The translations under genes and the position numbers were made by a program. From the NCBI RefSeq assembly GCF_057098645.1, contig NZ_CM169472.1: a stretch of DNA of 64,000 bases. One strand, given 5' to 3'. This document shows positions 259-59,359 of this stretch, piece by piece (positions within the stretch are counted from its first letter, which is position 1; each line of letters begins with the position of its first letter). The notes under the pieces are model-generated. The model saw only the letters and a list, made by a program, of their open reading frames with translations, did no database searches and was not told where the DNA came from.

Positions 259-281
259 ATCAGAATTCTCTTTAAAAAATT

Positions 282-407: not shown

Positions 408-1501
<1,094 letters not shown>

Positions 1502-1504
1502 GCC

Positions 1505-1933: not shown

Positions 1934-1997
1934 ACATCTGCGTTTCCCTTGCTTGAAAGAGAGCGGGTAACAGGCGAACAGTTTTTGGAAACCGAGA

Positions 1998-7444: not shown

Positions 7445-8488
7445 ATGAGCGTGATGTTTGATCCAGACACGGCGATTTATCCTTTCCCCCCGAAGCCGAC
7501 GCCGTTAAGCATTGATGAAAAAGCGTATTACCGCGAGAAGATAAAACGTCTGCTAAAAGAACGTAATGCGGTGATGGTTGCCCATTACTATACCGATCCC
7601 GAAATTCAACAACTGGCAGAAGAAACCGGTGGCTGTATTTCTGATTCTTTGGAAATGGCGCGCTTCGGTGCAAAGCATCCCGCTTCTACGTTGTTAGTCG
7701 CTGGGGTGAGATTTATGGGAGAAACCGCCAAAATTCTCAGTCCGGAAAAAACAATTCTGATGCCGACACTTCAGGCTGAGTGTTCACTGGATCTCGGCTG
7801 CCCTGTTGAAGAATTTAACGCATTTTGCGATGCCCATCCCGATCGTACTGTCGTCGTCTACGCCAACACTTCTGCTGCGGTAAAAGCGCGCGCAGATTGG
7901 GTGGTAACTTCAAGCATTGCCGTCGAACTTATTGATCATCTTGATAGTTTGGGTGAAAAAATCATCTGGGCACCCGACAAACATCTGGGGCGTTACGTGC
8001 AAAAACAGACGGGCGCAGACATTTTATGCTGGCAGGGTGCTTGCATTGTGCATGATGAATTTAAGACTCAGGCGTTAACCCGCTTGCAAGAAGAATACCC
8101 GGATGCTGCCATACTGGTGCATCCAGAATCACCACAAGCTATTGTCGATATGGCGGATGCGGTCGGTTCCACCAGTCAACTGATCGCTGCTGCAAAAACA
8201 TTGCCACATCAGCGGCTTATCGTGGCAACCGATCGGAGTATTTTCTACAAAATGCAGCAGGCGGTGCCAGATAAAGAGTTACTGGAAGCACCAACCGCAG
8301 GTGAGGGTGCAACCTGCCGCAGCTGCGCGCATTGTCCGTGGATGGCCATGAATGGCCTTCAGGCCATCGCAGAGGCATTAGAACAGGAAGGAAGCAATCA
8401 CGAGGTTCATGTTGATGAAAGGCTGCGAGAGAGGGCGCTGGTGCCGCTCAATCGTATGCTGGATTTTGCGGCTACACTACGTGGATAA
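7445..8488 (+). CDS. nadA: Quinolinate synthase NadA
   Basis: 347 aa, [37 protein letters not shown]... Confidence 0.95.
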
Positions 8489-34099: not shown

Positions 34100-34341
34100 T
34101 TATCATCTCCATAAAACAAAACCCGCCGTAGCGAGTTCAGATAAAAGAAATCCTCGTCAGTGCGAGGATGCTGTTCATTGCTGCTATACACTTTTTTGCT
34201 CTCAACGTAAGCGGTAGCTCATTCTGTTGGGTTGGTGCAGTTGCTTTTAGGAAATGCTATTTACCCCTTAAACGTCGGCTGAAAGAGCTAAAATCCATGC
34301 AAAAAATTTACGCAATTTTGTGTATTATTGTGCAGTAAGTA

Positions 34342-34944
34342 ATGAGCTATTTTCTGCGCAAAAAATGGATGGTAAATTTGTCCGGGGCAGGAAAAATTTT
34401 ATGGGCGCTAAACATGAAAAAAGATTCGTATCCTTATTTGATTTGCATGACAGTTTCAGGCCTGATCTTTATTTTCCTTTTCTTCTGGTGGCGGGCAGAT
34501 ATTTACAGGGTCACGTTTCTTAATCAGAGTATATCCCACTATTACATTCTGTTTAGCATGGGAATAGCTTTTCTGTTATCTCTGTTTTGGGTTAAGAAGG
34601 GGATAGTAAAACAAAGCGGCTGGAAGAGTCTGTCAGCATACCTTAAGGTTTATGCAGGGATGTGCATATTTGCTGGATTTTTTCTGATTATACCCCTTAC
34701 AACACTAACTTATTTTTTGCCTGGAGAGACATCGTCTTATGTTGCACCGTATCGGTATACTTCCGGTAGTTCAAAAAGTTGTTCTGGAGCTGAGGTGGAT
34801 GACCCCGATCTACATGAGAATATTCGCATTTGCTATCCGTATGGCAATTATGAGTACGATAATATTATCTATGTTGAAAAGAAAATTAATACATTAGGTG
34901 CGGTAGTAACATATGCACAGACCGCGCGTGATGATACTGAATGA
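34342..34944 (+). CDS. Hypothetical membrane protein (3-4 predicted TM helices plus C-terminal soluble domain); start uncertain
   Basis: 200-aa ORF, visibly AT-rich, opposite strand to the pL operon, occupying the lambda ea8.5/ea22 slot. Confidence 0.5.
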   Translation: MSYFLRKKWMVNLSGAGKILWALNMKKDSYPYLICMTVSGLIFIFLFFWWRADIYRVTFLNQSISHYYILFSMGIAFLLSLFWVKKGIVKQSGWKSLSAYLKVYAGMCIFAGFFLIIPLTTLTYFLPGETSSYVAPYRYTSGSSKSCSGAEVDDPDLHENIRICYPYGNYEYDNIIYVEKKINTLGAVVTYAQTARDDTE

Positions 34945-35154
34945 GATAGTATATAGCGGGCAAGTTTTAGTTAATTTATCGAGGTAATATAATTTACCTC
35001 GACTCGTTTATTCTGGTATTAATATTTCGCTTTACGATCGATTTTTATCTGATGATATCATGCGGTTTTCATATACTGACTTACTGTCTTTTCTCCGTTA
35101 GCGATTTTCTCCTGCTCAGCGATGATTTTATCTTTGGCTTCTAGTTAATTTCGC

Positions 35155-35376
35155 TCACTTCGAACCTCTCTGTTTACTGATAAGTTCCAGATCCTCCTGG
35201 CAACTTGCACAAGTCCGACAACCCTGAACGGCCAGGCGTCTTCGCTCATCTATGGGATCGCCACACTCACAACAATGAGTGGCAGATATAGCCTGGTGGT
35301 TCAGGCGGCGCATTTTTATTGCTGTGTTGCGCTGTAATTCTTCAATTTCTGATGCTGAATCAATGATGTCTGCCAT
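35155..35376 (-). CDS. TraR/DksA-family C4 zinc-finger protein
   Basis: 73 aa, CxxC-x17-CxxC (HCCECGDPIDERRRLAVQGCRTCASCQ). Confidence 0.75.
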   Translation of the reverse strand: MADIIDSASEIEELQRNTAIKMRRLNHQAISATHCCECGDPIDERRRLAVQGCRTCASCQEDLELISKQRGSK

Positions 35377-35474
35377 CTTCCATTAATCCCTGAATTGTTG
35401 GTTAATACGCTTGAGGGTGAATGCGAACAATAAAAAAGGAGCCTGTAGCTCCCTGATGATTTTGCTTTTCATGC

Positions 35475-35690
35475 TCACCGTTCCTTAAAGACGCCGTTTA
35501 ACATGCCGATCGCCAGGCTTAAATGAGTCGGTGTGAATCCCATCAGCGTTACCGTTTCGCGGTGCTTCTTCAGTACGCTACGGCAAATGTCATCGACGTT
35601 TTTATCCGGAAACTGCTGTCTGGCTTTTTTGATTTCAGAATTAGCCTGACGGGCAATACTGCGAAGGGCGTTTTCTTGCTGAGGTGTCAT
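35475..35690 (-). CDS. Hypothetical small protein (71 aa from MTPQQENALRSIARQ...)
   Basis: ORF in the pL operon between the TraR-like gene and orf63. Confidence 0.5.
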   Translation of the reverse strand: MTPQQENALRSIARQANSEIKKARQQFPDKNVDDICRSVLKKHRETVTLMGFTPTHLSLAIGMLNGVFKER

Positions 35691-35766
35691 TGAACAAGTC
35701 CCATGTCGGCAAGCATAAGCACACAGAATATGAAGCCCGCTGCCAGAAAAATGCATTCAGTGGTTG

Positions 35767-35958
35767 TCATACCAGGTCTCTCTCATCTGCTTCTGCTTTC
35801 GCCACCATCATTTCCAGCTTTTGCGAAAGGGATGTGGCTAACGTATGAAATTCTTCGTCTGTTTCTACTGGTATTGGCACAAACCTGACTCCAATTTGAG
35901 CAAGGCTATGTGCCATCTCAATACTCGTTCTTAACTCAACAGGAGATGCTTTGTGCAT
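35767..35958 (-). CDS. Lambda orf63-like protein
   Basis: 63 aa, position upstream of orf60a/exo as in lambda. Confidence 0.55.
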   Translation of the reverse strand: MHKASPVELRTSIEMAHSLAQIGVRFVPIPVETDEEFHTLATSLSQKLEMMVAKAEADERDLV

Positions 35959-36113
35959 ATCGCCTCCCGTTTATTATTTATCTCCTCAGCCAGCCGCTGG
36001 GCTTTCAGCGGATTTCGGATAACAGAAAGGCCGGGAAATACCCAGCCTCGCTTCGTAACGGAGTAGACGAAAGTGATCGTGCCTACGCGGATATTATCGT
36101 GAGGATGCTTCAT
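35931..36113 (-). CDS. Lambda orf60a-like protein
   Basis: 60 aa from [24 protein letters not shown]..., immediately upstream of exo. Confidence 0.55.
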
Positions 36114-36790
36114 CGCCATTGCTCCCCAAATACAAAACCAATTTCAGCCAGTGCCTCGTCCATTTTTTCGATGAACTCCGGCACCATCTCGTCAAAACCC
36201 GCCATGTACTTTTCATCCCGCTCAACCACGACATAATGCAGGCCTTCACGCTTCATACGCGGGTCATAGTTGGCAAAGTACCAGGCATCTTTTCGCGTCA
36301 CCCACATGCTGTACTGCACCTGGGCCATGTAAGCCGACTTTATGGCCTCGAAACCACCGAGCCTGAACTTCATGAAATCCCGGGAGGTAAACGGGCATTT
36401 CAGCTCAAGGCCGTTGCCGTCACTGCATAAACCATCGGGAGAGCAGGCGGTGCGCATACTTTCGTCGCGATAGATGATCGGGGATTCAGTAACATTCACG
36501 CCGGAAGTGAATTCAAACAGGGTTCTGGCGTCGTTCTCGTACTGTTTTCCCCAGGCCAGCGCCTTAGCATTAACTTCCGGAGCCACACCGGTGCAAACCT
36601 CAGCCAGCAGGGTGTGGAAGTAGGACATTTTCATGTCAGGCCACTTCTTTCCTGAGCGGGGCTTTGCTATCACGTTGTGAACTTCTGAAGCGGTGATGAC
36701 GCCGAGCCGTAATTTGTGCCATGCATCATCCCCCTGTTCGACAGCTCTCACGTCGATCCCGGTACGCTGCAGGATAATGTCCGGTGTCAT
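36110..36790 (-). CDS. exo: Lambda exonuclease (Red-alpha)
   Basis: 226 aa, [58 protein letters not shown]... Confidence 0.95.
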
Positions 36791-37572
36791 GCTGCCACCT
36801 TCTGCTCAGTGGCTTTCTGTTTCAGGAATCCAAGAGCTTTCACTGCTTCGGCCTGTGTCAGTTCTGACGATGCGCGAATGTCGCGGCGAAATATCTGGGA
36901 ACAGAGCGGCAATAAGTCGTCATCCCATGTTTTATCCAGGGCGATTAGCAGAGTGTTAATCTCCTGCATGGTTTCATCGTTAACCGGAGTGATGTCGCGT
37001 TCCGGCTGGCGTTCTGCAGTGTATGCAGTATTTTCGACAATGCGCTCGGCTTCATCCTTGTCATAGATACCAGCAAATCCGAAGGCCAGACGGGCACACT
37101 GAATCATGGCTTTATGCCGTAACATCCGTTTAGGATGCGACTGCCACGGCCCCGTGATTTCTCTGCCTTCGCGGGTTTTGAATGGTTCGCGGCGGCATTC
37201 ATCCATCCATTCGGTAACGCAGATCGGATGATTACGGTCCTTGCGGTAAATCCGGCATGTACAGGATTCATTGTCCTGCTCAAAGTCCATGCCATCAAAC
37301 TGCTGGTTTTCATTGATGATGCGGGACCAGCCATCAACGCCCACCACCGGAACGATGCCGTTCTGCTTATCAGGGAAGGCGTAAATTTCTTTCGTCCACG
37401 GATTAAGGCCGTACTGGTTGGCGACGATCAACAATGCGATGAACTGCGCATCGCTGGCATCGCCTTTAAATGCCGTCTGGCGAAGAGTGGTGATCAGTTC
37501 CTGTGGGTCGACAGAATCCATGCCGACACGTTCAGCCAGCTTCCCTGCCAGCGTTGCGAGTGCTGTACTCAT
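36787..37572 (-). CDS. bet: Lambda Bet (Red-beta) single-strand annealing protein
   Basis: 261 aa, [59 protein letters not shown]... Confidence 0.95.
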
Positions 37573-37577
37573 CCGTT

Positions 37578-37994
37578 TTATACCTCTGAATCAATATCAA
37601 CCTGATGGTGAGCAATGGTTTCAACCATGTACCGGATGTGTTCTGCCATGCGCTCCTGAAACTCAACATCGTCATCAAACGCACGGGTAATGGCTTTTTT
37701 GCTGGCCCCGTGGCGTTGCAAATGACCGATGCATAGCGATTCAAACAGGTGCTGGGGCAGGCCTTTTTCCATGTCGTCTGCCAGTTCTGCCTCTTTCTCT
37801 TCACGGGCTATCTGCTGGTAGTGACGCGCCCAGCTCTGAGCCTCAAGACGATCCTGAATGTAATAAGCGTTCATGGCCGAACTCCTGAAATAGCTGTGAA
37901 AATATCGCCCGCGAAATGCCGGGCTGATTAGGAAAACAGGAAAGGGGGTTAGTGAATGCTTTTGCTTGATCTCAGTTTCAGTATTAATATCCAT
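37578..37994 (-). CDS. gam: Lambda Gam (RecBCD inhibitor)
   Basis: 138 aa, [61 protein letters not shown]... Confidence 0.95.
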
Positions 37995-38092
37995 TTTTTA
38001 TAAGCGTCGACGGCCTCACGAAACATCTTTTCATCGCCAATAAAAGTGGCGATAGTGAATTTAGTCTGGATAGCCATAATTGTTTGATCCAT
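37949..38092 (-). CDS. kil: Lambda Kil (FtsZ inhibitor)
   Basis: 47 aa, [47 protein letters not shown]. Confidence 0.85.
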
Positions 38093-38225
38093 TTTTTGGG
38101 ACTCCTGGCTGATTAAGTATGTCGATAAGGCGTTTCCATCCGTCACGTAATTTACGGGTGATTCGTTCAAGTAAAGATTCGGAAGGGCAGCCAGCAACAG
38201 GCCACCCTGCAATGGCATATTGCAT
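38061..38225 (-). CDS. cIII: Lambda cIII (FtsH inhibitor)
   Basis: 54-aa ORF beginning MQYAIAGWPVAGCPSESLLER, overlapping kil by 32 nt as in lambda; below the ORF-track cutoff. Confidence 0.85.
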   Translation of the reverse strand: MQYAIAGWPVAGCPSESLLERITRKLRDGWKRLIDILNQPGVPKNGSNNYGYPD

Positions 38226-38297
38226 GGTGTGCTCCTTATTTATACATAACGAAAAACGCCTCGAGTGAAGCGTAATTGGTATGCGGTAACGCCGCGC

Positions 38298-38666
38298 TCA
38301 GGCGGCCTTGATAGTCATATCATCTGAATCAAATATTTCTGATGTATCGATATCGGTAATTCTTATTCCTTCACTACCATCCATTGGAGGCCATCCTTCC
38401 TGACCATTTCCATCATTCCAGTCGAACTCACACACAACACCATATGCATTTAAGTCGCTTGAAATTGCTATAAGCAGAGCATGTTGCGCCAGCATGATTA
38501 ATACAGCATTTAATACAGAGCCGTGTTTATTGAGTCGGTATTCAGAGTCTGACCAGAAATTATTAATCTGGTGAAGTTTTTCCTCTGTCATTACGTCATG
38601 GTCGATTTCAATTTCTATTGATGCTTTCCAGTCGTAATCAATGATGTATTTTTTGATGTTTGACAT
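38298..38666 (-). CDS. ea10: Lambda Ea10-like protein
   Basis: 122 aa, MSNIKKYIIDYDWKASIEIEIDHDVMTEEKLHQINNFWSDSEYRL... Confidence 0.8.
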   Translation of the reverse strand: MSNIKKYIIDYDWKASIEIEIDHDVMTEEKLHQINNFWSDSEYRLNKHGSVLNAVLIMLAQHALLIAISSDLNAYGVVCEFDWNDGNGQEGWPPMDGSEGIRITDIDTSEIFDSDDMTIKAA

Positions 38667-38685
38667 CTGTTCATATCCTCACAGA

Positions 38686-38712
38686 TAAAAAATCGCCCTC
38701 ATCTTGGAGGGC
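38686..38712 (-). terminator. Intrinsic terminator in the pL operon, upstream of ea10
   Basis: Minus strand gccctc-caagat-gagggc followed by gATTTTTT. Confidence 0.55.
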
Positions 38713-38854
38713 AAAGAAGATTTCCAATAATCAGAACAAGTCGGCTCCTGTTTAGTTACGAGCGACATTGCTCCGTGTATTCACTCGTTGGAATGAATAC
38801 ACAGCGCTGTGTTTATTCTGTTGTTTGCGTGAAAATGAAATCCGCCTGAGCGGG

Positions 38855-39736
38855 TTATGACCACTTTTTGTTTGGGTTTCGTTGGTGAGCGTGGTTTACA
38901 GGATTATTTGATATACCCCATAACTCTGACTCGCTTATCTCTACACGAGAGAAAGACCTGCTTTCTTTCAGTTCTTTTATAAACCTAGAACCTAAGATGA
39001 CATCTATTGTACCAGAAAGTTCTTGTAAAAGATCTTTGTTTTTTCTGAGGAAGAAAATATCTTCTTTATATTTAATTTTTACATAGAATTTATTCTGTAT
39101 TTTTAATATATCAAAGCATGGCAGATATCTATATCCCTCATATTTTCGCCACTGCTTAACAATTATAACATCTTTTTCATTTACTGCATTAATCAGCCCA
39201 AGACCAAGTACAGGTATGAATATTCTATTGTCTGCCGAAAGCGTACAATTATCACCACCAGGCAAATATGTATAAATCATGTCGGAATTTTTATACGCAT
39301 CAACGAATGCACGTAAGAAGCGTACATATTTTTGCCATCCGTTTATACCGAATTTACCATATAAGTATTCTTTATTTGTTAGAAGAAAACTATTTGTATC
39401 AGGATCCTTATCTACAGACCTGTCGATAAGATCTCCAACTACGTTTACAAAGTCAAAGACAGAGTTTAATAAGAACAATTGTCTTTCAGTAGGGCGAATT
39501 TCAATTATGTAGCCAGGATGAAGACGATATTGCATCTGCTTACGAAGTATACCGAACGCTTGGGTCCGAGCATCTGAAAGCAACTTCTTGTCGCCATCGC
39601 CGTGAGCATTGTTTCTAATAAAACTGATATAATTTGCTAATTTTTCAGCCTCTTTTTTGTGTTTTTTTCGCTCTGATGCTGAGTCTATTGGTTTTGGTAT
39701 GGACTTGTAATCAATCTTCTTCATTACGTACCTCAT
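38855..39736 (-). CDS. Uncharacterised 293-aa protein translationally coupled to N (lambda ral/sieB slot)
   Basis: Start ATG overlaps the N stop (ATGA), visibly AT-rich, lambda ral/sieB absent at this position; no motif I can assign. Confidence 0.6.
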   Translation of the reverse strand: MRYVMKKIDYKSIPKPIDSASERKKHKKEAEKLANYISFIRNNAHGDGDKKLLSDARTQAFGILRKQMQYRLHPGYIIEIRPTERQLFLLNSVFDFVNVVGDLIDRSVDKDPDTNSFLLTNKEYLYGKFGINGWQKYVRFLRAFVDAYKNSDMIYTYLPGGDNCTLSADNRIFIPVLGLGLINAVNEKDVIIVKQWRKYEGYRYLPCFDILKIQNKFYVKIKYKEDIFFLRKNKDLLQELSGTIDVILGSRFIKELKESRSFSRVEISESELWGISNNPVNHAHQRNPNKKWS

Positions 39737-40056
39737 GCCAATGGAATGGATTCCCCTTTAACCTTTTGTCTTCCTTGACAAGTTATACCGAACTCACCTG
39801 GCTTGCTATACCAAACTCGATGATTCTTGCGCTCAATACGTTGCAGGTTGCTTTCAATCTGTTCGTGGTATTCAGCCAGCACCGTAAGGTCTATCGGATT
39901 CAGTGCGCTTTCTACTCGTGATTTCGGTTTGCGATTCAGCGAGAGAATAGGGCGGTTAACTGGTTTAGCGCTTACCCCAACCAACAGGGGATTTGCTGCT
40001 TTCCATTGAGCCTGTTTCTCTGCGCGACGTTCGCGGCGGCGTGTTTGTGCATCCAT
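39733..40056 (-). CDS. N: Lambda antiterminator N
   Basis: 107 aa, MDAQTRRRERRAEKQAQWKAANPLLVGVSAKPVNRPILSLNRKPKSRVESALNPIDLTVLAEYH... Confidence 0.9.
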   Translation of the reverse strand: MDAQTRRRERRAEKQAQWKAANPLLVGVSAKPVNRPILSLNRKPKSRVESALNPIDLTVLAEYHEQIESNLQRIERKNHRVWYSKPGEFGITCQGRQKVKGESIPLA

Positions 40057-40213
40057 CTGGATTCTCCTGTCAGTTAGCTTTGGTTGTGTGTGGGAGTCGT
40101 AGTCCTGAACGAAAACACCCCGCAATGGCACATTGGCAGCTAATCCGGATTCGCACTTCCGGCCAATGCTTCGTTTCGTATCACACACACCAAAGCCTTC
40201 TGCTTTGAATGCT

Positions 40214-40228
40214 GCCCTTCTTCAGGGC
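40214..40228 (-). promoter_or_regulatory. nutL boxB hairpin
   Basis: Minus-strand GCCCTGAAGAAGGGC, the lambda boxB sequence, between pL and N. Confidence 0.65.
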
Positions 40229-40279
40229 TTAATTTTTAAGAGCCTCACCTTCAATGGTGGTCAGTGCGTCCTGCTGATG

Positions 40280-40348
40280 GCTTAAAATTACAAGGAAGAT
40301 TGTATGTTGTAAACAAGAAATATTGTAAAAAAGGGACGTGAAAAACAA
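40280..40348 (-). promoter_or_regulatory. 434-type left operators (OL1-OL3) with the pL promoter
   Basis: Three 14-bp ACAA-N6-TTGT sites: ACAAGGAAGATTGT, ACAAGAAATATTGT, ACAAACTCCATTGT. Confidence 0.7.
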
Positions 40349-40408
40349 ACTCCATTGTTTTTAAACGGAAAATAGTTTGTTTTTTTGTTATCGAGATTGA
40401 GGTGGGGA

Positions 40409-41454
<1,046 letters not shown>

Positions 41455-41473
41455 TTATTTACCCCCAATCTTC

Positions 41474-41532
41474 ACAAGAAAAACTGTATTTGACAAACAA
41501 GATACATTGTATGAAAATACAAGAAAGTTTGT
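41474..41532. promoter_or_regulatory. 434-type right operators OR3-OR2-OR1 with pRM/pR
   Basis: ACAAGAAAAACTGT (41474-41487), ACAAGATACATTGT (41497-41510), ACAAGAAAGTTTGT (41519-41532). Confidence 0.8.
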
Positions 41533-41545
41533 TGATGGAGGCGAT

Positions 41546-41575
41546 ATGCAAACTCTTTCTGAACGCCTCAAGAAG
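41546..41575 (+). pseudogene. cro: 434-type cro truncated after codon 10 by an IS insertion
   Basis: ATG CAA ACT CTT TCT GAA CGC CTC AAG AAG (MQTLSERLKK) runs directly into the IS terminal repeat TGAACCGCCCC. Confidence 0.75.
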
Positions 41576-41617
41576 TGAACCGCCCCGGGTTTCCTGGAGA
41601 GTATTTTATCTGTGAAC

Positions 41618-42508
41618 TCAGGCTGCCAGATCATTATTTCCGATGGAAGCATAATAAGCTTTTTCTGCTTCTGCCGGAGGAATATGGCCCAGCCTTTCCA
41701 GCAATCGTCGATTGTTATACCAGTCCACCCACGTGAGTGTGGCCAGTTCCACTTCTGCACGGTTTTTCCAGCTCTTACGGTGTATTACCTCCGCTTTGTA
41801 AAGACCATTGATGCTCTCCGCCATCGCGTTGTCATACGAGTCGCCAGTACTCCCTGTTGATGCCAGTAATCCGGCTTCCTTAAGCCGCTGCGTGTAGGCC
41901 AGCGATACATACTGAGAACCTTTATCACTGTGATGGATTGTGCCGGACGGCCGACGGGCCCACAACGCCTGCTCCAGTGCATCCAGCACGAATGTTGTTT
42001 CCATGGATGATGAGACCTGCCATCCCACGATGTATCCGGCGAACACATCAATGATGAACGCCACATAAACGAAGCCCCGCCATGTGCTGACGTAAGTAAA
42101 ATCAGCCACCCACAGCTGGTCAGGTCGTTCTGCCACGAACTGACGGTTTACGCGGTCGCCTGCGGCAACGGCTTTCCGGCTGATGGTCGTACGGACCTTT
42201 TTACCCCGGAGAACACCGGCAAGTCCCATAACTGCCATGAGACGTGCCACAGTGCATCTGGCCACTCTGATACCTTCCCGTAACAACTGACGCCAGACTT
42301 TACGCACACCGTATACCTGGTGATTTTCATCGTATACGCGCTGTATCTCTTTCTTCAGCCAGTCATCGTGCTGCGCACGGGCACTGCGTTTATCCGGATG
42401 ATGTCGCTGTTGCTGACAGTGGTAATACGTTGACGGGGCAATATGCAGTTCGCTGCATAGCGGTCCGACCCCGTACTGCTCACGCAGCTTATCCAGCAGT
42501 GGCATCAT
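41618..42508 (-). CDS. IS629-like transposase OrfB (DDE/integrase domain)
   Basis: 296-aa ORF with IS3-family DDE region ([10 protein letters not shown]...[11 protein letters not shown]). Confidence 0.85.
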
Positions 42509-42831
42509 TTTTTCCAGAGGCGGTCGAACTCCGCCTTCGCAAAATAAGCGGAAGCCTGGCGAAGGATATCGTTACTGCGGCGCAGTTCACGATTTTCACG
42601 CTCCAGCTCTTTCAGACGCTGACGTTCAGCGGTGGTGAGCCCGCCATCACCGCCCCCGGTATCCCGCTCATGCTGGCGAACCCAGACACGCAGAGTCTCC
42701 GGCGTACAGCCAATCTTTGGAGCAATGGAACAAATTGTCGCCCATTGTGAGTCATATTCATCCTGACTTTCCAGAACCATACGAATCGCCCGCTGACGGA
42801 CTTCGGGGGAAAAACGAGTATTTTTAGTCAT
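42505..42831 (-). CDS. IS629-like transposase OrfA (HTH)
   Basis: 108 aa, [50 protein letters not shown]... Confidence 0.85.
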
Positions 42832-42885
42832 CCTGTTTACCTCTTTCTCAGGGAGTTTAGTCTCCAGGATTTCCGGGGCGGTTCA

Positions 42886-43265
42886 ACCAGCCAGAAAACG
42901 ACCTTTCTGTGGTGAAACCTGATGCTGCATGGGGGACAGCAGAAGACCTGACCGCCGCAGAGTGGATGTTTGACATGGTGAAGACTATCGCGCCATCAGC
43001 CAGAAAACCGAATTTTGCAGGGTGGGCTAACGATATCCGCCTGATGCGTGAACGTGACGGACGTAACCACCGCGATATGTGTGTGCTGTTCCGCTGGGCC
43101 TGCCAGGACAACTTCTGGTCCGGTAATGTGCTGAGCCCGGCCAAACTCCGCGACAAGTGGACCCAGCTCGAAATCAACCGTAACAAGCAACAGGCAGTCG
43201 TGACAGCCAGCAAACCAAAACTCGACCTGACAAACACAGACTGGATTTACGGGGTGGATTTATGA
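42886..43265 (+). pseudogene. O: Lambda O replication initiator, C-terminal fragment only
   Basis: ...WGTAEDLTAAEWMFDMVKTIAPSARKPNFAGWANDIRLMRERDGRNHRDMCVLFRW...TDWIYGVDL; begins at the IS boundary. Confidence 0.8.
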
Positions 43266-43963
43266 AAAACATCGCCGCACAGATGGTTAACTTTGACCGT
43301 GAGCAGATGCGTCGGATCGCCAACAACATGCCGGAACAGTACGACGAAAAGCCTCAGGTACAGCAGGTAGCGCAGATCATCAACGGTGTGTTCAGCCAGT
43401 TACTGGCAACTTTCCCGGCGAGCCTGGCTAACCGTGACCAGAACGAACTGAACGAAATCCGCCGCCAGTGGGTTCTGGCTTTCCGGGAAAACGGGATCAC
43501 CACAATGGAACAGGTTAACGCAGGAATGCGCGTAGCCCGTCGGCAGAATCGACCATTTCTGCCATCACCCGGGCAGTTTGTTGCATGGTGCCGGGAAGAA
43601 GCATCCGTTATCGCCGGACTGCCAAACGTCAGCGAGCTGGTTGATATGGTTTACGAGTATTGCCGGAAGCGAGGCCTGTATCCGGATGCGGAGTCTTATC
43701 CGTGGAAATCAAACGCGCACTACTGGCTGGTTACCAACCTGTATCAGAACATGCGGGCCAATGCGCTTACTGATGCGGAATTACGGCGCAAGGCTGCCGA
43801 TGAACTGTCCTGTATGACCGCACGAATTAACCGTGGTGAGGCTATACCTGAACCAGTAAAACAACTTCCTGTCATGGGCGGTAGACCTCTAAATCGTGCA
43901 CAGGCTCTGGCGAAGATCGCAGAAATCAAAGCTAAGTTTGGGCTGAAAGGAGCAAGTGTATGA
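43262..43963 (+). CDS. P: Lambda P (DnaB helicase loader)
   Basis: 233 aa, MKNIAAQMVNFDREQMRRIANNMPEQYDEKPQVQQVAQIINGVFSQLLATFPASLANRDQNELNEIRRQW... Confidence 0.95.
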   Translation: MKNIAAQMVNFDREQMRRIANNMPEQYDEKPQVQQVAQIINGVFSQLLATFPASLANRDQNELNEIRRQWVLAFRENGITTMEQVNAGMRVARRQNRPFLPSPGQFVAWCREEASVIAGLPNVSELVDMVYEYCRKRGLYPDAESYPWKSNAHYWLVTNLYQNMRANALTDAELRRKAADELSCMTARINRGEAIPEPVKQLPVMGGRPLNRAQALAKIAEIKAKFGLKGASV

Positions 43964-44250
43964 CGGGCAAAGAGGCAATTATTCATTACCTGGGGACGCA
44001 TAATAGCTTCTGTGCGCCGGACGTTGCCGCGTTAACAGGCGCAACAGTAACCAGCATAAATCAGGCCGCGGCTAAAATGGCACGGGCAGGTCTTCTGGTT
44101 ATCGAAGGTAAGGTCTGGCGAACGGTGTATTACCGGTTCGCTACTAGGGAAGAACGGGAAGGAAAGATGAGCACGAACCTGATTTTTAAGGAGTGTCGCC
44201 AGAGTGCCGCGATGAAACGGGTATTGGCGGTATATGGAGTTAAAAGATGA
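43960..44250 (+). CDS. ren: Lambda Ren
   Basis: 96 aa, MTGKEAIIHYLGTHNSFCAPDVAALTGATVTSINQAAAKMARAGLLVIEGKVWRTVYYRF... Confidence 0.9.
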   Translation: MTGKEAIIHYLGTHNSFCAPDVAALTGATVTSINQAAAKMARAGLLVIEGKVWRTVYYRFATREEREGKMSTNLIFKECRQSAAMKRVLAVYGVKR

Positions 44251-48071: not shown

Positions 48072-48462
48072 ATGTTATTGTCTTCCTTTTTTTTGAATGG
48101 TGCGCGTATTTTACATACATGAGTTTGTAATACAAGGTGCGTAATCAATATGATGTTTTATAATTGCGTGAGACAATTGATTTATTCGTTTTTTATTGCG
48201 GTTTTATTATCTTTTAATGTAATGGTGTTTTTATTAAGTGTGTTTGCGTGGTGTTTTATGTTTTTTATAATTTTTTATTTTATTAAATTTAAATGCATTA
48301 GTAATGGCTATTCTATATAGCAATATAAGAACTGTTACAAAAAAAGGGGGGGCAATTACAGGTAGTTATGGATGATGAGTGAAACAGATATTGGAGAACC
48401 GGGGAATGAATGATGTCTGAGTCTTATATATCAGAACTCCTTCGCTGTCGCTGGGGGCTCCT

Positions 48463-49236
48463 GTGCTTATGTCGTTTCCCCGATTCGGTTTTGAACGATT
48501 ACCGAATGTTGAAGAATTATGCCAAAATATAGAAAGGATTTACTGCATGAATACCCAATATTTACAGTATGTTCGTGAGCAACTTATGGCAGCTACTGCT
48601 GACTTGAACGGAGCAACGAAAGGCCAGCTCGAAGCCTGGCAGGAGCATGCACAATTTGATACTGGTACATACAAACGAAAGAAGCCGCGCATTCTGGATG
48701 TGGTAACTGGCAAGATGATTACGCTGGATAATACGCCGACTTCCGGTAAGCAGTCGTACGCAAAAGGTTCATCCATTGCTTTGGTCAGCCCGGTTGAATT
48801 CTCAACCTCTTCATGGCGCCGCGCGGTTTTGTCTCTCGATGAACATCAGAAAGCATGGTTGCTTTGGTGTTACAGCGAAAGCGTTCGATGGGGGCATCAG
48901 GTCACCATAACGCAATGGGCATGGAGCGAGTTTAAAGATTTGTTAAGTAACAGAAAAATTGCAGGTAAGACACTGGATCGCCTGAAGACGTTAATCTGGC
49001 TGGCTGCACAGGATGTGAAGAGCGAACTTGCAGGGCGTGAGGCCTATGAATACCAGACACTGGCATCATTGGTGGGAGTGACAACAAAAAACTGGTCCGA
49101 GACATTTACTGAACGCTGGGTTGCAATGAAGCACATTTTTCTACAGCTTGATAGTGATGCTTTATTGCTTGTGACGAGAACACGTTCAAAACAAAAGGCA
49201 GCATTTTTACAGCAAAATATTGCAAAACTGGATTAA
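48463..49236 (+). CDS. Hypothetical protein, possibly a non-lambda late-gene regulator; start uncertain (alternative ATG at 48547)
   Basis: 257-aa ORF downstream of the Q stub, no zinc-finger cysteines; function not assignable from sequence. Confidence 0.35.
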   Translation: MLMSFPRFGFERLPNVEELCQNIERIYCMNTQYLQYVREQLMAATADLNGATKGQLEAWQEHAQFDTGTYKRKKPRILDVVTGKMITLDNTPTSGKQSYAKGSSIALVSPVEFSTSSWRRAVLSLDEHQKAWLLWCYSESVRWGHQVTITQWAWSEFKDLLSNRKIAGKTLDRLKTLIWLAAQDVKSELAGREAYEYQTLASLVGVTTKNWSETFTERWVAMKHIFLQLDSDALLLVTRTRSKQKAAFLQQNIAKLD

Positions 49237-49405
49237 AAGCCATATACTTCATGCAAATTTGGTATGTTGTAAAAAATGTATAAACCCGCTGCCGAGTGGG
49301 TTTTTTTTATGCCCTGAGTTGTACTTGTACGGTAAACATGCTGGCTGCTATGTAATAGAGTTTTTTTAGCCTGTAACCTCTTGACGGCATTGAATTGCTT
49401 TTGTT

Positions 49406-50164
49406 ATGAGTTGTAAGCCAATGTTATCATCTTGTATTGGGGTGGTTATGAAGGATGGTGCGCTGCTCAGGAGTTCTTCACTTTTTATTGCCTACATGGG
49501 ATGCCTTGGATGGGGGAGTGCTTATTTCTATGGATGGGGTACTTCTTTTTACTACGGCTTCCCATGGTGGATTGTAGGTGCAGGTGTTGATGATGTTGCC
49601 AGAAGTTTATTTTTTGCAGTTATCGTCATTGCTATATTTCTTATCGGTTGGGGTATTGGTGTTGTATTCTTTTTCGCAGTGAAAAGAAAACATTCTATGC
49701 AAGAGCTAAATGTATTTCGCCTTTATTTTGCTGTGGAATTATTGTTTGTGCCGGCAATTATTGAGTTTTCTATATTGAGACAGAAGATTCAGGTACCTCT
49801 TTTGCTACTGTCAGCAGCGATTGCGCTGGCGGTTACAATTTCGATAAGATCTTATGGGCGATTTTTATCGGTATCATGCTTCTATGATAAGCCATTTATA
49901 AAAAAACATTTTTTTGAGATTGTGATGATTGCTTTTGTGGCATATTTTTGGCTTTTTTCATTTCTGACAGGATATTACAAACCACAGTTTAAGAAAGAAT
50001 ATGAAATGATTAATTATAATGATGGTTGGTATTATGTTCTTGCTCGTTATGATAATTGTCTGGTTTTGTCTACTTCTTTCAATGCAGGTAGTAAAAGGTT
50101 TGTCATTTATCAATCAGCACAAGATAAGAATCTTCAGGTTGATATTGTAAGGACCAGAATTTAA
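49406..50164 (+). CDS. Hypothetical polytopic membrane protein (cargo gene in the Q-to-lysis region)
   Basis: 252-aa ORF, several hydrophobic helices, visibly AT-rich. Confidence 0.5.
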   Translation: MSCKPMLSSCIGVVMKDGALLRSSSLFIAYMGCLGWGSAYFYGWGTSFYYGFPWWIVGAGVDDVARSLFFAVIVIAIFLIGWGIGVVFFFAVKRKHSMQELNVFRLYFAVELLFVPAIIEFSILRQKIQVPLLLLSAAIALAVTISIRSYGRFLSVSCFYDKPFIKKHFFEIVMIAFVAYFWLFSFLTGYYKPQFKKEYEMINYNDGWYYVLARYDNCLVLSTSFNAGSKRFVIYQSAQDKNLQVDIVRTRI

Positions 50165-50297
50165 TTGGCTGCATAAATAATATTTTAAGTTGCAAGTTGG
50201 CTATTCGTAGGAATAGAACCTTAGGCATGCTGAATGCGTTTTCTGAACATTGTTTTATAAACTGTGTCTGCTTGCTGTTGTGATCCTGCTTTTAGTG

Positions 50298-50408
50298 ATG
50301 GTGATGATGGATTTCACCAGCAGGATAATGTTGGTACTGACTGATGGCGCTCTGGTCTGCGGCATTGTGGTATTGCTGTGGCCGATGATGAAAGAACAGA
50401 ATGAATAA
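50298..50408 (+). CDS. Putative 36-aa hydrophobic peptide
   Basis: MVMMDFTSRIMLVLTDGALVCGIVVLLWPMMKEQNE, one TM-like segment; below the ORF-track cutoff. Confidence 0.3.
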   Translation: MVMMDFTSRIMLVLTDGALVCGIVVLLWPMMKEQNE

Positions 50409-50593: not shown

Positions 50594-50620
50594 GGCTGCG
50601 CATTGCGCAGCCTTTTTTTT
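50594..50620 (+). terminator. Intrinsic terminator (possible late-leader terminator)
   Basis: ggctgcgca-t-tgcgcagcc followed by TTTTTTTT. Confidence 0.6.
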
Positions 50621-50706
50621 ATGACCTGCCACTGGCAGATGGTCATCCTGTGATTTGATTCCGCTTCCGGCTTTTTAACTCTGTTCCTCTACACGGGAGA
50701 AATTCG

Positions 50707-52556
50707 ATGTCGATTAAACATTACGATGTTGTCAGGGCGGCGTCGCCGTCAGACCTTGCGGAAAAGCTGACACACAAACTGAAAGAGGGCTGGCAGCCAT
50801 ACGGCGGACCGGTTGCCATTACGCCGTACACACTGATGCAGGCGGTGGCTATTGAAGGAGAGCCACAGGTCGGCCCTTCATCTGAGCCGGATTGGTACTA
50901 CGTCATCGTACTGGCCGGGCAGTCCAATGCCATGGCTTACGGTGAAGGGCTTCCGCTGCCGGATTCATACGATGCTCCGGATCCGCGCATTAAACAGCTG
51001 GCGCGCCGCAGTACAGTGACGCCGGGCGGGGCTGCCTGCAGATATAACGATATTATTCCGGCTGACCACTGTCTGCATGATGTGCAGGATATGAGTACGC
51101 TGAATCATCCGAGGGCTGACCTGAGCAAAGGGCAGTACGGCTGTGTCGGTCAGGGTTTACATATTGCCAAAAAACTGCTCCCGTATATCCCGAATAACGC
51201 GGGGATCCTGCTGGTACCATGCTGTCGTGGTGGTTCGGCATTTACCCAGGGCGCGGAGGGGACATTCAGCGAGTCCACGGGGGCCAGTCAGGATTCGGCA
51301 CGCTGGGGGTGGGCAAGCCGTTATATCAGGATCTGATTTCCCGCACAAAAGCGGCATTGCAGAAAAATCCCAAAAACGTTCTGCTGGCCGTCTGCTGGAT
51401 GCAGGGTGAGTTTGACATGAGCGCCGCCACCCACGCACAGCAACCTGCGCTGTTTACAGCCATGCTGACACAGTTTCGTGCTGACCTCTCCGTGTTTAAC
51501 GCGCAGTGCCATGGTGGCAGTGCTGCAGATGTGCCGTGGATTTGTGGTGACACGACGTATTACTGGAAAAATACATACGCTACCCAGTACGACACCGTGT
51601 ACGGCGGGTATAAAAACAGGGAGAGTGAGGGCGTTTATTTTGTGCCCTTCATGACAGACGGTAACGGCGTCAATACCGCCACTAACGCGCCGGCAGAAGA
51701 TCCGGATATTCCGGCATCAGGATATTACGGTGCGGCATCGAGAACGAATGGAAACCAGGTATCATCAAACCGCCCGACACATTTCAGTTCATGGGCGCGC
51801 AGGAGCATTATTCCGGATCGTCTGGCAACCGCTATTCTGAACGCAGCCGGGCGCACCTCAGCCTTCATCAGTGGTAAGGCACCGGAAATCAAACCCTCGC
51901 CCGGCGGCAACACGCCATCGGGTCCGTCTGCAGATACGTCCGTTCGCACAATCTCCCTGCTGCCGGCAGCCGGAGAGGCTGCTGCGCAGGGCTGGAGCAT
52001 TAAGGATGGCGGAATTCAGTTGTCAGATGGTGTATTTAAGATCACCAAGCAGAGCAATAAAACCTGGTCCCTGACGCATCCGGTGGATGACGCAATTACC
52101 CTGCTGACACAGGGCGGCAGACTGACCTGTAAGTTCCGCCTGTCAGGCGCACTGACCAACAATCAGTTCGGGCTGGGGATTTATCTGTATACGGATGCTC
52201 CCGTTCCTGATGGTGTGGCGATGACGGGTACCGGTAATCCGTTCCTGATGTCGTACTTCACTCAGACCACTGACGGCAGAGTGAATCTGATGCATCACAG
52301 GAAAGCCGGAAACACGAAGCTGGGGGAGTTCGGCGATTACGGTAACGACTGGCAGACGCTGGAGCTGGTGTTCACCGCCGGCAGTGCCACGGTTACTCCG
52401 AAACTGAATGGAGTGGCTGGCCCGGCATTCCAGGTTATAAAAGACAGTCTGACACTGGGACTGAATGCGCTGACGCTGACGGATGTTACAAAAAATGCAG
52501 CGTATGGCGTTGAGATAGAAAGTCTGATGCTGGAGATAAATGCACCGGCAGCATAA
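50707..52556 (+). pseudogene. Prophage sialate O-acetylesterase-like (NanS-p family) gene, split by a frameshift at a G5 run
   Basis: N-terminal esterase half (GQSN motif) in ORF 50707..51336 and C-terminal half in ORF 51219..52556; the frames meet at the G-run near 51281-51285. Confidence 0.6.
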
Positions 52557-52728
52557 TAAAAAAAGCCAGCGACTGACCTGAAAAAGAAGACGCTGGCTAA
52601 AAGGCCTTATATGTTTGTAGAGACTTATTTTTCACAGACAGCAATGATGCCTGTCAATATATTATCAATATGCGGATTGTTTCAGTTACAGATGCCTTAT
52701 TAAGGAAAAAAACAGCCAGCTGTAGTGG

Positions 52729-53756
<1,028 letters not shown>

Positions 53757-53760
<4 letters not shown>

Positions 53761-54197
53761 TGCCACTGCTGGATAAGCTGCGTGAGCAGTACGGGGTCGG
53801 ACCGCTATGCAGCGAACTGCATATTGCCCCGTCAACGTATTACCACTGTCAGCAACAGCGACATCATCCGGATAAACGCAGTGCCCGTGCGCAGCGCGAT
53901 GACTGGCTGAAGAAAGAGATACAGCGCGTATACGATGAAAATCACAAGGTATACGGTGTGCGTAAAGTCTGGCGTCAGTTGTTACGGGAAGGTATCAGAG
54001 TGGCCAGATGCACTGTGGCACGTCTCATGGCGGTTATGGGACTTGCCGGTGTTCTCCGGGGTAAAAAGGTCCGTACGACCATCAGCCGGAAAGCCGTTGC
54101 CGCAGGCGACCGCGTAAACCGTCAGTTCGTGGCAGAACGACCTGACCAGCTGTGGGTGGCTGATTTTACTTACGTCAGCACATGGCAGGGCTTCGTG
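53757..54197 (+). pseudogene. IS629-like OrfB, N-terminal part (copy 2), interrupted by IS21-family insertion
   Basis: Matches copy-1 OrfB up to ...[14 protein letters not shown], then reads into the foreign element. Confidence 0.8.
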
Positions 54198-54294
54198 CGT
54201 ATTCCGCTCTATTCGATCACGGATTGGCATCGAAGTCCGATCAGCGATTCGCATCCATTCGATCAACCGGGAACTTAACTTTTTCTACCGCTTT

Positions 54295-55050
54295 TTAACG
54301 CGTTTTTTCGCTGCTTTCCACTACCGGGGGATTTTTCCTCAGTGACTCTCCCTGAAGGACCACTCGGTGTGAGTTATGTACCAGTCTGTCCAGGATGGCA
54401 TCTGCTGTTGTTGGGTTCTCCATCAGACCATGCCATTTATCTACCGGGAACTGGCTTACCACTATCGTGCTGCTTTGTCCGTAACGATCCTCTATGAGCT
54501 CCAGAAGGTCATTACACTGGGCGTTACTTAACTGTTCCAGCCCCAGATCGTCCAGGATTAGAACCTGTATTTTTTGCAACTGTTTCAGATATTTCAGCCA
54601 GCTGCCATCAACACGTCCCTGAGCCAGTTGTTCCAGTAATCGCCCGGTTCTACAGTACCGGACGCTGTGTTTCTGTCGACATGCCTGTTCGCCCAGCGCA
54701 TTGGCTATCCAGCTCTTGCCACATCCTGTCGGACCGGTTATCAGCAGGTTTTTCCTGTGGGTTATGTAGTGGCCGTTCAGCAGTTCTCTCATCTGTTCAG
54801 CCCGCAGACCTCTTGAGGCCGGATAGCGCAGCCCTTCCGGTGTTGCCTGGTATTTCAGGCCGGCATTTTTTCTCAACCGTGCCACACGGCTGTTTTCCCT
54901 GCTCAGAAGCTCGTCATCAACCAGCAGCGTCAGCCTTTCCTCGAACGACAGTTCGTCGTAGGTCTGAGGCGTTTCCCGCTGCCGTATCAGGCTCCCGGCC
55001 ATCGCCGGGAGTTTCAGTTGGGTCAGTTTGTTTAACAGGTTATCACTCAT
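54295..55050 (-). CDS. istB: IstB-like ATPase helper of IS21-family transposition
   Basis: Walker A GPTGCGKS; start taken at MSDNLLNKLTQLKLP within the longer ORF. Confidence 0.8.
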   Translation of the reverse strand: MSDNLLNKLTQLKLPAMAGSLIRQRETPQTYDELSFEERLTLLVDDELLSRENSRVARLRKNAGLKYQATPEGLRYPASRGLRAEQMRELLNGHYITHRKNLLITGPTGCGKSWIANALGEQACRQKHSVRYCRTGRLLEQLAQGRVDGSWLKYLKQLQKIQVLILDDLGLEQLSNAQCNDLLELIEDRYGQSSTIVVSQFPVDKWHGLMENPTTADAILDRLVHNSHRVVLQGESLRKNPPVVESSEKTR

Positions 55051-55066
55051 ACTGTTGTTCCTTCTG

Positions 55067-56602
55067 TCAGTGGTAGTAGCCCGGACCACGCAGGTTTTCA
55101 TGCTCTGAAGCATATGCCGGATGTTGTTCGCCCTGGCGGGATAATGGAAGCTCCAGGTTCTCCCGATGGTGACGCAGCAGATTGTCGATAAAGCGTCTGT
55201 CAGGGGCGTTATAGTGCAGGGCAACGTAACAGGCCTTTTCCAGCCGTTCCGGGCCGTATTTTTTCTGAAGTGCCAGCAGCCCCAGAACTGCACGATAAGC
55301 CAGTTCCGGATGGGGTTTTGCCTTCAGCATGGATTCAACCACCCGGCCTGTGGACGGGCCCGTACGTTTTCCCTGCTCGATCAGGCGTTCCGGTGTCCAT
55401 GTCCCGTGCTGCCGGTGGCGCTCTGGCATGTGAAGCGGATTGGTTGTGTGTTTATATTCATGTGTGCTGCGCGGATGTTGCGCCACACACTGCCCCTTGT
55501 GCCAGAGCTGTACCACCGACTGCCCCGCCTTCAGTGACAGACGCTGACCGACCAGTTCGTGTGGAACGGAGTACCAGTGACGGGCATATTCAACGTGGTA
55601 GTCAGGGCCAACCTTCACAGCTTTGTATTCCGTGTATTCATAAGGTGCCAGAGGCAGCGGAGAGAGTGCTGGCGCATCCAGTATGCGGAAGCGTTCTGCA
55701 CGGGTTTGATTGCCGTACCCCTTCATTGGCCGGTTATTCATGTCTGTCAGTAACTCCCTAAGGCGCGCATTCAGCGCCCTGAGCGTGTGGAAGGTTTCAT
55801 TACGGATGCGGGCAAGAAGCCATCGTTCAACGATGAGGACGCCGTTTTCTGCTTTTGGTTTATCTTTAGGTTTGCGTGGTCGGGCCGGGATGATAACCGT
55901 GCCATAGTGCTCAGCCAGTGCCTGATAACTGTCGTTGATGACAGGCTCATATCGATCGGCCTTTTTCACTGCGCTTCTGAGGTTATCGGGGATGAGCAGC
56001 TTCGGTACGCCGCCCAGGAAGGTCAGGCAACGGCTGTGGGCATTTAACCATGACATCATGTCCTGACCTTCGCACGCTTCAACGTAGGTATAGTTGGACG
56101 CCCCCATTACGGCCACGAAGATTGCCACGCGGCGTATCTCACCGGTGTCCGGATTAATAACAGGAACCGTAGGACCACAGAAGTCGATAAAAAGCTTTTC
56201 GCCGGCACGATGCTCCTGGCGCATGGAGAGACGTCGCGTTTTTTTCCACTCCCGGTAGCAACGGCAGAAGTGCGAGTATCCCATCGCTTTGTTACCCGCC
56301 TGTGCCTTGTATTCCATCCACAACAGTTGCCGCGTCACACCTGGTTTTCTCATTTCCGTATCGAAGTACAACATGTCAGGCATTACAAGCTCTGATGCAA
56401 AGGTGTCTTTGGGCGGAAAAATGAGTTTCTCCAGCGTGTCATGGGATATATCAGCAGGTAATGGCCATGACAGAGAAGAGGCTTTGAAGCGGGCAAGAAC
56501 CTCAAAAACGGTTGAGGCGCTGATGTGTAACGTCAGTCCGATACAACGGTTAGTCAGCTTCTTGTCGAACTTGAGCTGAAGGATCTTAAAACAGGTTTCC
56601 AT
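55067..56602 (-). CDS. istA: IstA-like IS21-family transposase; start uncertain
   Basis: Long ORF with N-terminal HTH and DDE-type core, ends 16 nt upstream of istB. Confidence 0.7.
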   Translation of the reverse strand: METCFKILQLKFDKKLTNRCIGLTLHISASTVFEVLARFKASSLSWPLPADISHDTLEKLIFPPKDTFASELVMPDMLYFDTEMRKPGVTRQLLWMEYKAQAGNKAMGYSHFCRCYREWKKTRRLSMRQEHRAGEKLFIDFCGPTVPVINPDTGEIRRVAIFVAVMGASNYTYVEACEGQDMMSWLNAHSRCLTFLGGVPKLLIPDNLRSAVKKADRYEPVINDSYQALAEHYGTVIIPARPRKPKDKPKAENGVLIVERWLLARIRNETFHTLRALNARLRELLTDMNNRPMKGYGNQTRAERFRILDAPALSPLPLAPYEYTEYKAVKVGPDYHVEYARHWYSVPHELVGQRLSLKAGQSVVQLWHKGQCVAQHPRSTHEYKHTTNPLHMPERHRQHGTWTPERLIEQGKRTGPSTGRVVESMLKAKPHPELAYRAVLGLLALQKKYGPERLEKACYVALHYNAPDRRFIDNLLRHHRENLELPLSRQGEQHPAYASEHENLRGPGYYH

Positions 56603-56742
56603 AGTGCTCCTGGATTTTCTCTTTCTGGACATTGACGTCTCCACTGGTTTAAACACGGCAATGGAGACTGTGGTGAAAAGAGTTAATTCCCGGAGTGACT
56701 GGCAGGATGCCAATCAATGATCGGAAGCATGCCAAATCGTGA

Positions 56743-57291
<549 letters not shown>

Positions 57292-57303
57292 GTTCACAGA
57301 TAA

Positions 57304-58017
<714 letters not shown>

Positions 58018-58221: not shown

Positions 58222-58428
58222 ATGGAAAAAATCACAACAGGTGTGTCATACACCACGTCAGCGGTGGGGACGGGATACGGGTTACTGCAGCTGCTGGACA
58301 AAGTCTCTCCGTCCCAGTGGGTGGCAATAGGTGTGCTGGGAAGTCTGCTGTTTGGCCTGCTGACGTATCTGACAAATCTTTATTTCAAGATTAAAGAAGA
58401 TAAGCGTAAGGCTGCGAGAGGTGAATAA
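58222..58428 (+). CDS. S: Class II holin, phage 21 S-type (pinholin-like)
   Basis: 68 aa, two TM segments, ...[41 protein letters not shown]. Confidence 0.85.
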
Positions 58429-58925
58429 TGTCGCCGTCATTACGCAAGGCTGTTGCAGCTGCTATTGGTGGTGGGGCTGTTGCCATAGCGTCTGTGCTCA
58501 TCACTGGTCCAGGTGGTAACGATGGTCTGGAAGGTGTCAGCTACATACCATACAAAGATATCGTTGGCGTATGGACTGTATGTCACGGACACACCGGAAA
58601 AGACATCATGCCCGGTAAAACGTATACCGAAGCAGAATGCAAAGCCCTCCTGAATAAAGACCTTGCCACGGTCGCCAGACAAATTAACCCGTACATCAAA
58701 ATCGATATACCGGAAACAACGCGCGGCGCTCTTTACTCGTTCGTTTACAACGTGGGCGCTGGCAATTTCAGAACATCGACGCTTCTTCGCAAAATAAACC
58801 AGGGCGATATCAAAGGCGCATGTGATCAGCTACGGCGCTGGACATACGCTGGCGGTAAGCAATGGAAAGGGCTGATGACTCGCCGTGAGATTGAGCGTGA
58901 AGTCTGTTTGTGGGGGCAACAATGA
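58428..58925 (+). CDS. R: SAR-endolysin, T4-lysozyme-like muramidase
   Basis: 165 aa, N-terminal Gly/Ala-rich SAR segment followed by a lysozyme-type catalytic region. Confidence 0.85.
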
Positions 58926-59359
58926 GCAGAGTAACCGCGATTATCTACGTTCTGGTCATCTGCCTCATCGTCTGCCTTTCATGGGCTGTTAATCATTACC
59001 GTGATAACGCCATCGCCTACAAAGAGCAGCGCGATAAAGCCACATCCATCATCGCTGATATGCAGAAGCGGCAACGTGATGTAGCAGAACTTGACGCCAG
59101 ATACACAAAGGAGCTTGCTGATGCTAATGCGACTATCGAAAGTCTCCGTGCTGATGTTTCTGCTGGGCGTAAGCGCCTGCAAGTCTCCGCCACCTGTGCA
59201 AAGTCAACGACCGGAGCCAGCAGCATGGGCGATGGAGAAAGCCCAGGACTTACAGCAGATGCTGAACTCAATTATTACCGTCTCCGAGGTGGAATCGACA
59301 AGATAACCGCGCAGGTTAACTACCTGCAGGAATACATCAGGACGCAGTGCTTAAAATAA
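58922..59359 (+). CDS. Rz: Rz-like inner-membrane spanin
   Basis: [25 protein letters not shown] segment then coiled-coil; ATG overlaps the R stop. Confidence 0.8.
59121..59306 (+). CDS. Rz1: Rz1-like outer-membrane lipoprotein spanin, embedded in Rz in the +1 frame
   Basis: [20 protein letters not shown] lipobox followed by a Pro-rich segment. Confidence 0.6.

Follow-up and report, generated by a model that had tools for sequence, protein, structure and literature searches.

The window, by which we mean the whole stretch of 64,000 nt analysed (contig NZ_CM169472.1 of assembly GCF_057098645.1), carries a prophage gene that is by descent a member of the NanS-p family and, as written, a pseudogene. 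Its frame is broken by the lack of a single G in a tract that has six G residues in intact alleles (G6) and five here (G5; 51305-51309). The explanation we prefer, held with about even confidence, is a genuine and very recent slipped-strand deletion in a NanS-p copy that is no longer selected; an error of sequencing or assembly is its main competitor.

Judged from its sequence, the gene encodes a predicted prophage sialate 9-O-acetylesterase of the NanS-p type, composed of DUF1737, an SGNH/SASA domain and a C-terminal lectin-like domain. Of 5,426 complete E. coli genomes searched by megablast with 50650-52600, 1,830 contain the region, and the best matches (1,952 nt, against 1,951 nt of the query) bear the annotation of one "SASA family carbohydrate esterase." The gene has the features by which NanS-p is recognized: a central SASA/SGNH domain, an N-terminal DUF1737, a C-terminal lectin-like domain and a late-region position after Q.

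In the ORF list the gene appears as two overlapping ORFs of 209 aa (50707-51336) and 445 aa (51219-52556), both on the + strand and sharing 118 nt, as the first-pass annotation had described. The features of the gene are as follows.

50707-51336 (+): upstream ORF, 209 aa; 201 native residues, followed by 8 in the wrong frame (WASRYIRI) and a stop codon
Residues 4-49 of the upstream ORF: DUF1737 (PF08410; Pfam, E 5.5e-16)
50917-50928 (+): GQSN block-I motif, residues 71-74
51279-51283 (+): G run, the same in intact homologues; not the lesion
51305-51309 (+): actual frameshift site, G5 here and G6 in the intact alleles
51310-52556 (+): downstream remainder, frame shifted by +1; equivalent to intact-protein residues 202-616

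According to the Pfam search, positions 4-97 of the SASA profile are matched in the upstream ORF and positions 101-158 in the downstream ORF, which also contains the C-terminal, lectin-like DUF6645 (PF20350; E 2.6e-18). Since the SASA profile is divided contiguously between the two ORFs, they represent halves of one domain, and a chance pairing is excluded. The GQSN motif, which had been assigned to the N-terminal part of the protein, lies in the upstream ORF, and its Ser73 (codon TCC, 50923-50925) aligns with the serine of the AGQSNA motif of the solved NanS/YjhS. The downstream remainder holds the C-terminal half of SASA with the QGEFD block, His359 (codon CAT, 51780-51782) and the DUF6645 domain; the downstream ORF as delimited mechanically begins before the shifted part, at the ATG at 51219. 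Thus, the block-I Ser73 and the block-V His359 are encoded by different ORFs, with no single polypeptide containing the SGNH/SASA apparatus and no single frame covering all three domains; the frame ends at 51336. Because the fragment with GQSN and Ser73 is parted from the QGE block, His359 and the carbohydrate-binding domain, no active esterase would be encoded, and the gene as written is predicted to have lost its activity. Exact look-ups of the 445-aa ORF and of an IS-truncated ORF of 173 aa in public records gave no match.

Position of the frameshift and the protein junction

The reference alleles were the 1,851-nt genes for the 616-aa protein WP_049029101.1 in strains 2000-3039 and O103:H2 CEC12044 (loci L001 and L002). 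Alignment with these two intact genes revealed one base as the sole difference across the 1850-nt gene: the sequence here reads GCT-GGGGG-TGGGC, while the intact alleles have GGGGGG. This agrees with the initial view of one NanS-p-like gene cut by a single-base frameshift in a G homopolymer. The first-pass annotation had, however, located the lesion in the G run near 51281-51285. That run actually spans 51279-51283 and is unchanged in the intact homologues, and the run that does differ lies 26 nt downstream of it.

One extra G at either run results in an open frame of 616 codons, so the sequence alone leaves the choice undecided and the homologues decide it. The true protein junction is ...STGASQDSARWGVGKPLYQDL... 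(in a longer stretch, ...TFSESTGASQDSARWGVGKPLYQDL...); at this place the intact alleles have ...STGASQDSARWGVGK... and the solved NanS has ...GASHDACRWGTDTP.... Across the same stretch the sequence of the NanS/YjhS structure (3PT5) is GASHDACRWGTDTPLYQDL, which confirms the frame of the true junction. A G added to the upstream run does give the continuous reading that was proposed, but with the wrong junction, ...STGGQSGFGTLGVGK...: the peptide ...GGQSGFGTLG... given earlier is wrong in eight residues relative to the intact alleles and 3PT5. Comparison with intact NanS-p homologues, which had been suggested as a check, thereby supported the single frameshift and moved it to the other run. The size of the product also changes, from about 645 aa to the 616 aa of the intact protein, 645 aa being the length of the 933W-type NanS-p. 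Apart from the missing G, the gene is 100% identical to the intact alleles, and given this lack of secondary decay the event must be very recent, if it is real at all.

Prophage setting and insertion sequences

The first 34 kb of the window are chromosomal (tol-pal, gal, mod and ybhC) and share about 99.96% identity with O145:H28 strains. The host chromosome is O145:H28-like, and a lambdoid prophage is integrated at the ybhC site. The late region has the order Q, hypothetical membrane protein, DUF3927 protein, esterase and lysis cassette, which is the same in annotated relatives. The gene thus lies after Q in a prophage of lambdoid type, the position that the first-pass annotation gave for esterases of this family in enterohaemorrhagic E. 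coli phages. The coordinates of Q were transferred from L002 by alignment.

41576-42885: IS3-family (IS629-like) copy splitting the replication gene O; insertion point shared with O145:H28 RM13516
48547-49236 (+): antiterminator Q gene (WP_001097238.1 in relatives)
49220-49248: match to the consensus of a pR'-like promoter, after Q
49282-49303: terminator-like hairpin (tR'-like) with a T run, after Q; consensus match
49421-50164 (+): hypothetical membrane protein, between Q and the esterase
50250-50408 (+): DUF3927 protein, between Q and the esterase
50594-50620 (+): GC-rich hairpin with T8, terminator-like by consensus match only, about 90 nt 5' of the esterase start
52721-57935: triple-nested IS cluster (5.2 kb), between the esterase and the holin
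52721-53379 and 57334-57935: outer IS3-family element, split by the IS629/IS1203-like element
53380-54196 and 56835-57333: IS629/IS1203-like element, split by the IS21/ISSso4-like element
54196-56834: IS21/ISSso4-like element (istA/istB), innermost
58222-58428 (+): holin, first gene of the lysis cassette (58222-59359)
58428-58925 (+): lysozyme, lysis cassette
58922-59359 (+): Rz-like protein, lysis cassette

The two strong terminator-like hairpins upstream of the esterase (49282-49303 and 50594-50620) suggest that its expression depends on Q antitermination. A scan of the region between Q and the lysis genes identified no tRNA genes, and no stx genes are present there. In intact relatives the lysis cassette lies directly 3' of the esterase. 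Among RefSeq complete genomes none matched the region over its full length, the best one covering 88% of it.

Due to the IS copy in gene O the prophage is replication-defective. An early region of about 9.8 kb (34171-43975), including N, the repressor gene, cII and part of O, is kept here; in the US O145:H28 strain RM11626-C1 (L006) an IS3-family element stands in its place, and the prophage described here looks like a less-deleted form of the RM11626-C1 element.

The outer insertion of the nested cluster is common to O145:H28 strains, C325 and Z1323HEC0422, and in the last two the esterase is intact with a G6 tract. This insertion has an apparent 3-bp target duplication (L002 positions 8070-8072 align to both sides). 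Within the innermost element, the istB gene has G5 at 54326 and is intact, whereas Z1323CEC0005 (L003) has G4 and an istB annotated as frameshifted.

The same esterase copy has been broken by IS elements in relatives. It is interrupted by ISEc20 in all the ISEc20-type O145:H28 RefSeq strains examined (RM13514, 16003 type), by an IS21-type insertion in Z1323CEC0005 and by an IS3-family insertion in WL1467. Its repeated loss through IS insertions indicates that the copy is dispensable; the genomes of relatives contain 6-10 esterase paralogues each. ISEc20 (IS110 family, about 1.45 kb; L006 43558-45020) is inserted 2 nt past the G6 run, at ...CTGGGGGGTG^GGCAAG, so that two independent kinds of lesion, the slippage or miscall described here and the ISEc20 insertion, occur within 8 nt of each other.

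We considered the G5 tract as a scar of ISEc20 excision and rejected this: the IS junction (…GGGGGGTG^GGC…) lies outside the G run, and ISEc20-bearing strains retain G6. No ISEc20 was found in the 64-kb window. As the early region 34171-43975 is kept here and absent from the ISEc20-bearing RM11626-C1, ISEc20 need never have been present in this lineage.

A genuine deletion or an under-called base

In the preferred explanation, a slipped-strand event would have removed one G from the G6 tract. Translation would then stop after 201 native and 8 aberrant residues, and no active esterase would be made. Such a loss could be tolerated, the prophage being already defective, with 6-10 paralogues in relatives and the same copy IS-broken there. 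We infer that the deletion is biological and not an assembly miscall, and this preference is based on the clean window, the decaying prophage and the redundant copies.

The alternative, to which we assign slightly less than an even chance, is an artefact of assembly or consensus calling: the strain would have G6 and an intact 616-aa gene, and one G would have been under-called, either in the sequencing itself (long-read, 454 or the like) or when a multi-copy prophage region was polished. Only 1 nt in a G6 run separates the gene from the intact alleles, and the 6-10 near-identical paralogues per genome seen in relatives complicate read mapping and polishing, both of which speak for an artefact. 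Against it stands the quality of the window, which has no other signs of homopolymer error. Over 33 kb of core sequence no indel was detected relative to RM11626-C1, and besides the esterase lesion there is no coding indel relative to five relatives. Run lengths also agree with the relatives at T8 (50613-50620), at the two G7 runs and at each of the three further G/C6 runs, and the genes adjoining the esterase are all intact, unlike those of error-laden contigs.

A single further indel is private to the window: T6 at 48271 (48271-48276), against T5 in five relatives, in an AT-rich intergenic region. It belongs to a series of intergenic homopolymer sites between the lpxR-like gene and ylcG/Q (48201, 48271-48276 and 48346). 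The T4 versus T5 difference near 48201 has several assemblies on each side, and a G7 versus G6 difference in the same interval is private to CEC12044.

The behavior of the tract in public genomes was assessed with probes of 76-78 nt for the G5, G6 and G7 versions, whose exact matches were counted in RefSeq E. coli. The exact in-frame G6 version (77 nt) occurred in 607 records and the exact G5 version in nine, and this search returned no record for G7. The G6-to-G5 change is thus sporadic (9 of 1146 RefSeq genomes), and it is scattered over serotypes and paralogues. Such an identical change across unrelated assemblies and paralogues, with G5 and never G7 as its product, favors an artefact. Likewise, a targeted search for an O145 paralogue that lies between TerB and an IS3 element found G5 in RM8995-C1 and 95-3192, while RM8988-C1, RM8843-C1 and RM12275-C1, which are near-identical, have the gene intact with G6. 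The change is therefore private to one of several clone-mates, and in the assembly of that strain, RM8995-C1, a C6 run of RM8988-C1 within ISEc20 is likewise shortened to C5.

The exact shortened product of 209 aa is encoded on nine public contigs. Many further 1-nt deletions are present in five of these (L011, L012, L014, L016 and L017), including deletions at GATC and CCWGG motif sites in L011 and L012, and L019 has a second homopolymer deletion; the occurrence of G5 alongside such dense errors again points to an artefact. Since the G5 contigs are mostly rich in other 1-nt deletions, we conclude that the tract is a recurrent site of sequencing under-calls, and database counts of "split" nanS-p genes are probably inflated by errors of this type. 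G/C6-to-5 changes or other 1-nt deletions around NanS-p paralogues were seen in RM8995-C1, 95-3192, FORC_044, GCA_046575805.1, GCA_046575705.1, GCA_974481825.1 and AIGK01000014.1 (L009 position 1873 versus L010; L007 3001-3076; L011-L019).

The remaining readings all have low probability. It is unlikely that the G6 tract (residues 200-201) is a true mutational hot spot, where slippage would recurrently silence NanS-p paralogues in EHEC lineages and which, together with the ISEc20 target 2 nt beyond it, would form a preferred site of inactivation. Anything more exotic than a deletion or an artefact is very improbable.

We give even less credit to the tract as a functional switch, either a phase-variable contingency tract or a site of programmed ribosomal or transcriptional slippage that yields the full-length enzyme. 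The recurrence of tract-length changes in independent genomes and paralogues would fit such a role. However, the 607 G6 records are in frame, and with intact alleles read through G6 the family needs no frameshift. A programmed frameshift gene was rejected accordingly, as homologues show no frame change at the site in these exact records and in intact annotated genes. Phase variation would be heritable and proceed in both directions; the counts (nine G5, 607 G6 and no G7) reflect change in one direction only, which is not inherited within clades and in many cases co-occurs with obvious sequencing errors, and phase variation is therefore not supported. In E. coli with functional mismatch repair, a tract of six G residues is short for phase variation.

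Finally, that the halves are two natural genes, for a DUF1737 capsid-binding protein and a separate esterase/lectin protein, has a negligible probability: a free DUF1737 product is conceivable in view of its reported release from gp84 of phage phi24B (2026 preprint), but the reading frame breaks within the catalytic SASA domain and not between domains, parting Ser73 from His359, and homologues have single annotated genes of 1851 nt at the same prophage position, which together with the 607 exact in-frame G6 records excludes the naturally separate genes that had been named as grounds for refuting a frameshift.

The first-pass annotation, which offered a pseudogene or a homopolymer sequencing error, had thus chosen the right pair of alternatives. 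The loss of one NanS-p copy in a defective prophage is routine and carries little weight for biology; the practical gain is that the lesion is now assigned to the correct run, with the correct protein junction. As the same tract recurrently changes from G6 to G5 in public E. coli assemblies, many of which show clear signs of error, split nanS-p annotations at this position, such as the separate DUF1737 and DUF6645 proteins encoded here, call for caution when functional nanS-p alleles are counted.

Comparison with known NanS-p proteins

Both the family and the type of lesion are already known, NanS-p being a characterized and highly redundant prophage gene family. The closest relatives are the WP_049029101.1 loci of E. 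coli 2000-3039 and O103:H2 CEC12044, in which the gene DNA is identical except for one G and is located in the same lambdoid prophage, with the same upstream neighbors (LpxR, YlcG, Q, hypothetical protein and DUF3927). The locus described here differs from them by G5 at 51305-51309, the resulting two ORFs and the 5.2-kb nest of IS elements that parts the gene from the holin.

The chromosomal NanS (YjhS), a 9-O-acetyl-N-acetylneuraminic acid esterase, aligns over 320 residues (3PT5; E 1e-122) with residues 60-379 of the intact allele, and the alignment takes in the serine of GQSN and the histidine of HFSS. In contrast to the gene analysed here, NanS is not encoded by a prophage and has neither the DUF1737 nor the C-terminal domain. 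The C-terminal part of the intact allele (residues 421-613; 193 residues) matches the lectin-like jelly-roll domain of vb_24B_21 (gp84) of the Stx phage phi24B, deposited as a "NanS-p" chain (6YP6; E 1e-29), and gp84 also has the N-terminal DUF1737 in common with the gene. A 2026 preprint describes the DUF1737 domain of this homologue as proteolytically released and decorating the capsid. Phage phi24B has a short tail and a T=9 capsid that gp84 reportedly decorates, while the prophage in the window has lambda-type head genes, as judged from its relatives.

The published architecture of NanS-p, composed of DUF1737, SASA and a variable lectin-like C-terminal domain (PMC10462455; PMC8065619), is that of the EHEC NanS-p of phage 933W (Z1466/L0105), which has the same three-domain layout and is encoded by a late gene lying after Q (or stx) and before the lysis cassette. 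Seven to ten NanS-p alleles are present in EDL933 and five in O104:H4, and several of them have been published as esterases active on Neu5,9Ac2 and supporting growth on sugars from mucin (PMC8065619). Since the published Neu5,9Ac2 de-O-acetylase activity concerns the EDL933 and O104:H4 alleles only, that of the allele in question is putative. Compared with the 933W-type NanS-p of 645 aa, the intact allele is 616 aa long, its prophage is without stx, and the copy in the window is frameshifted.
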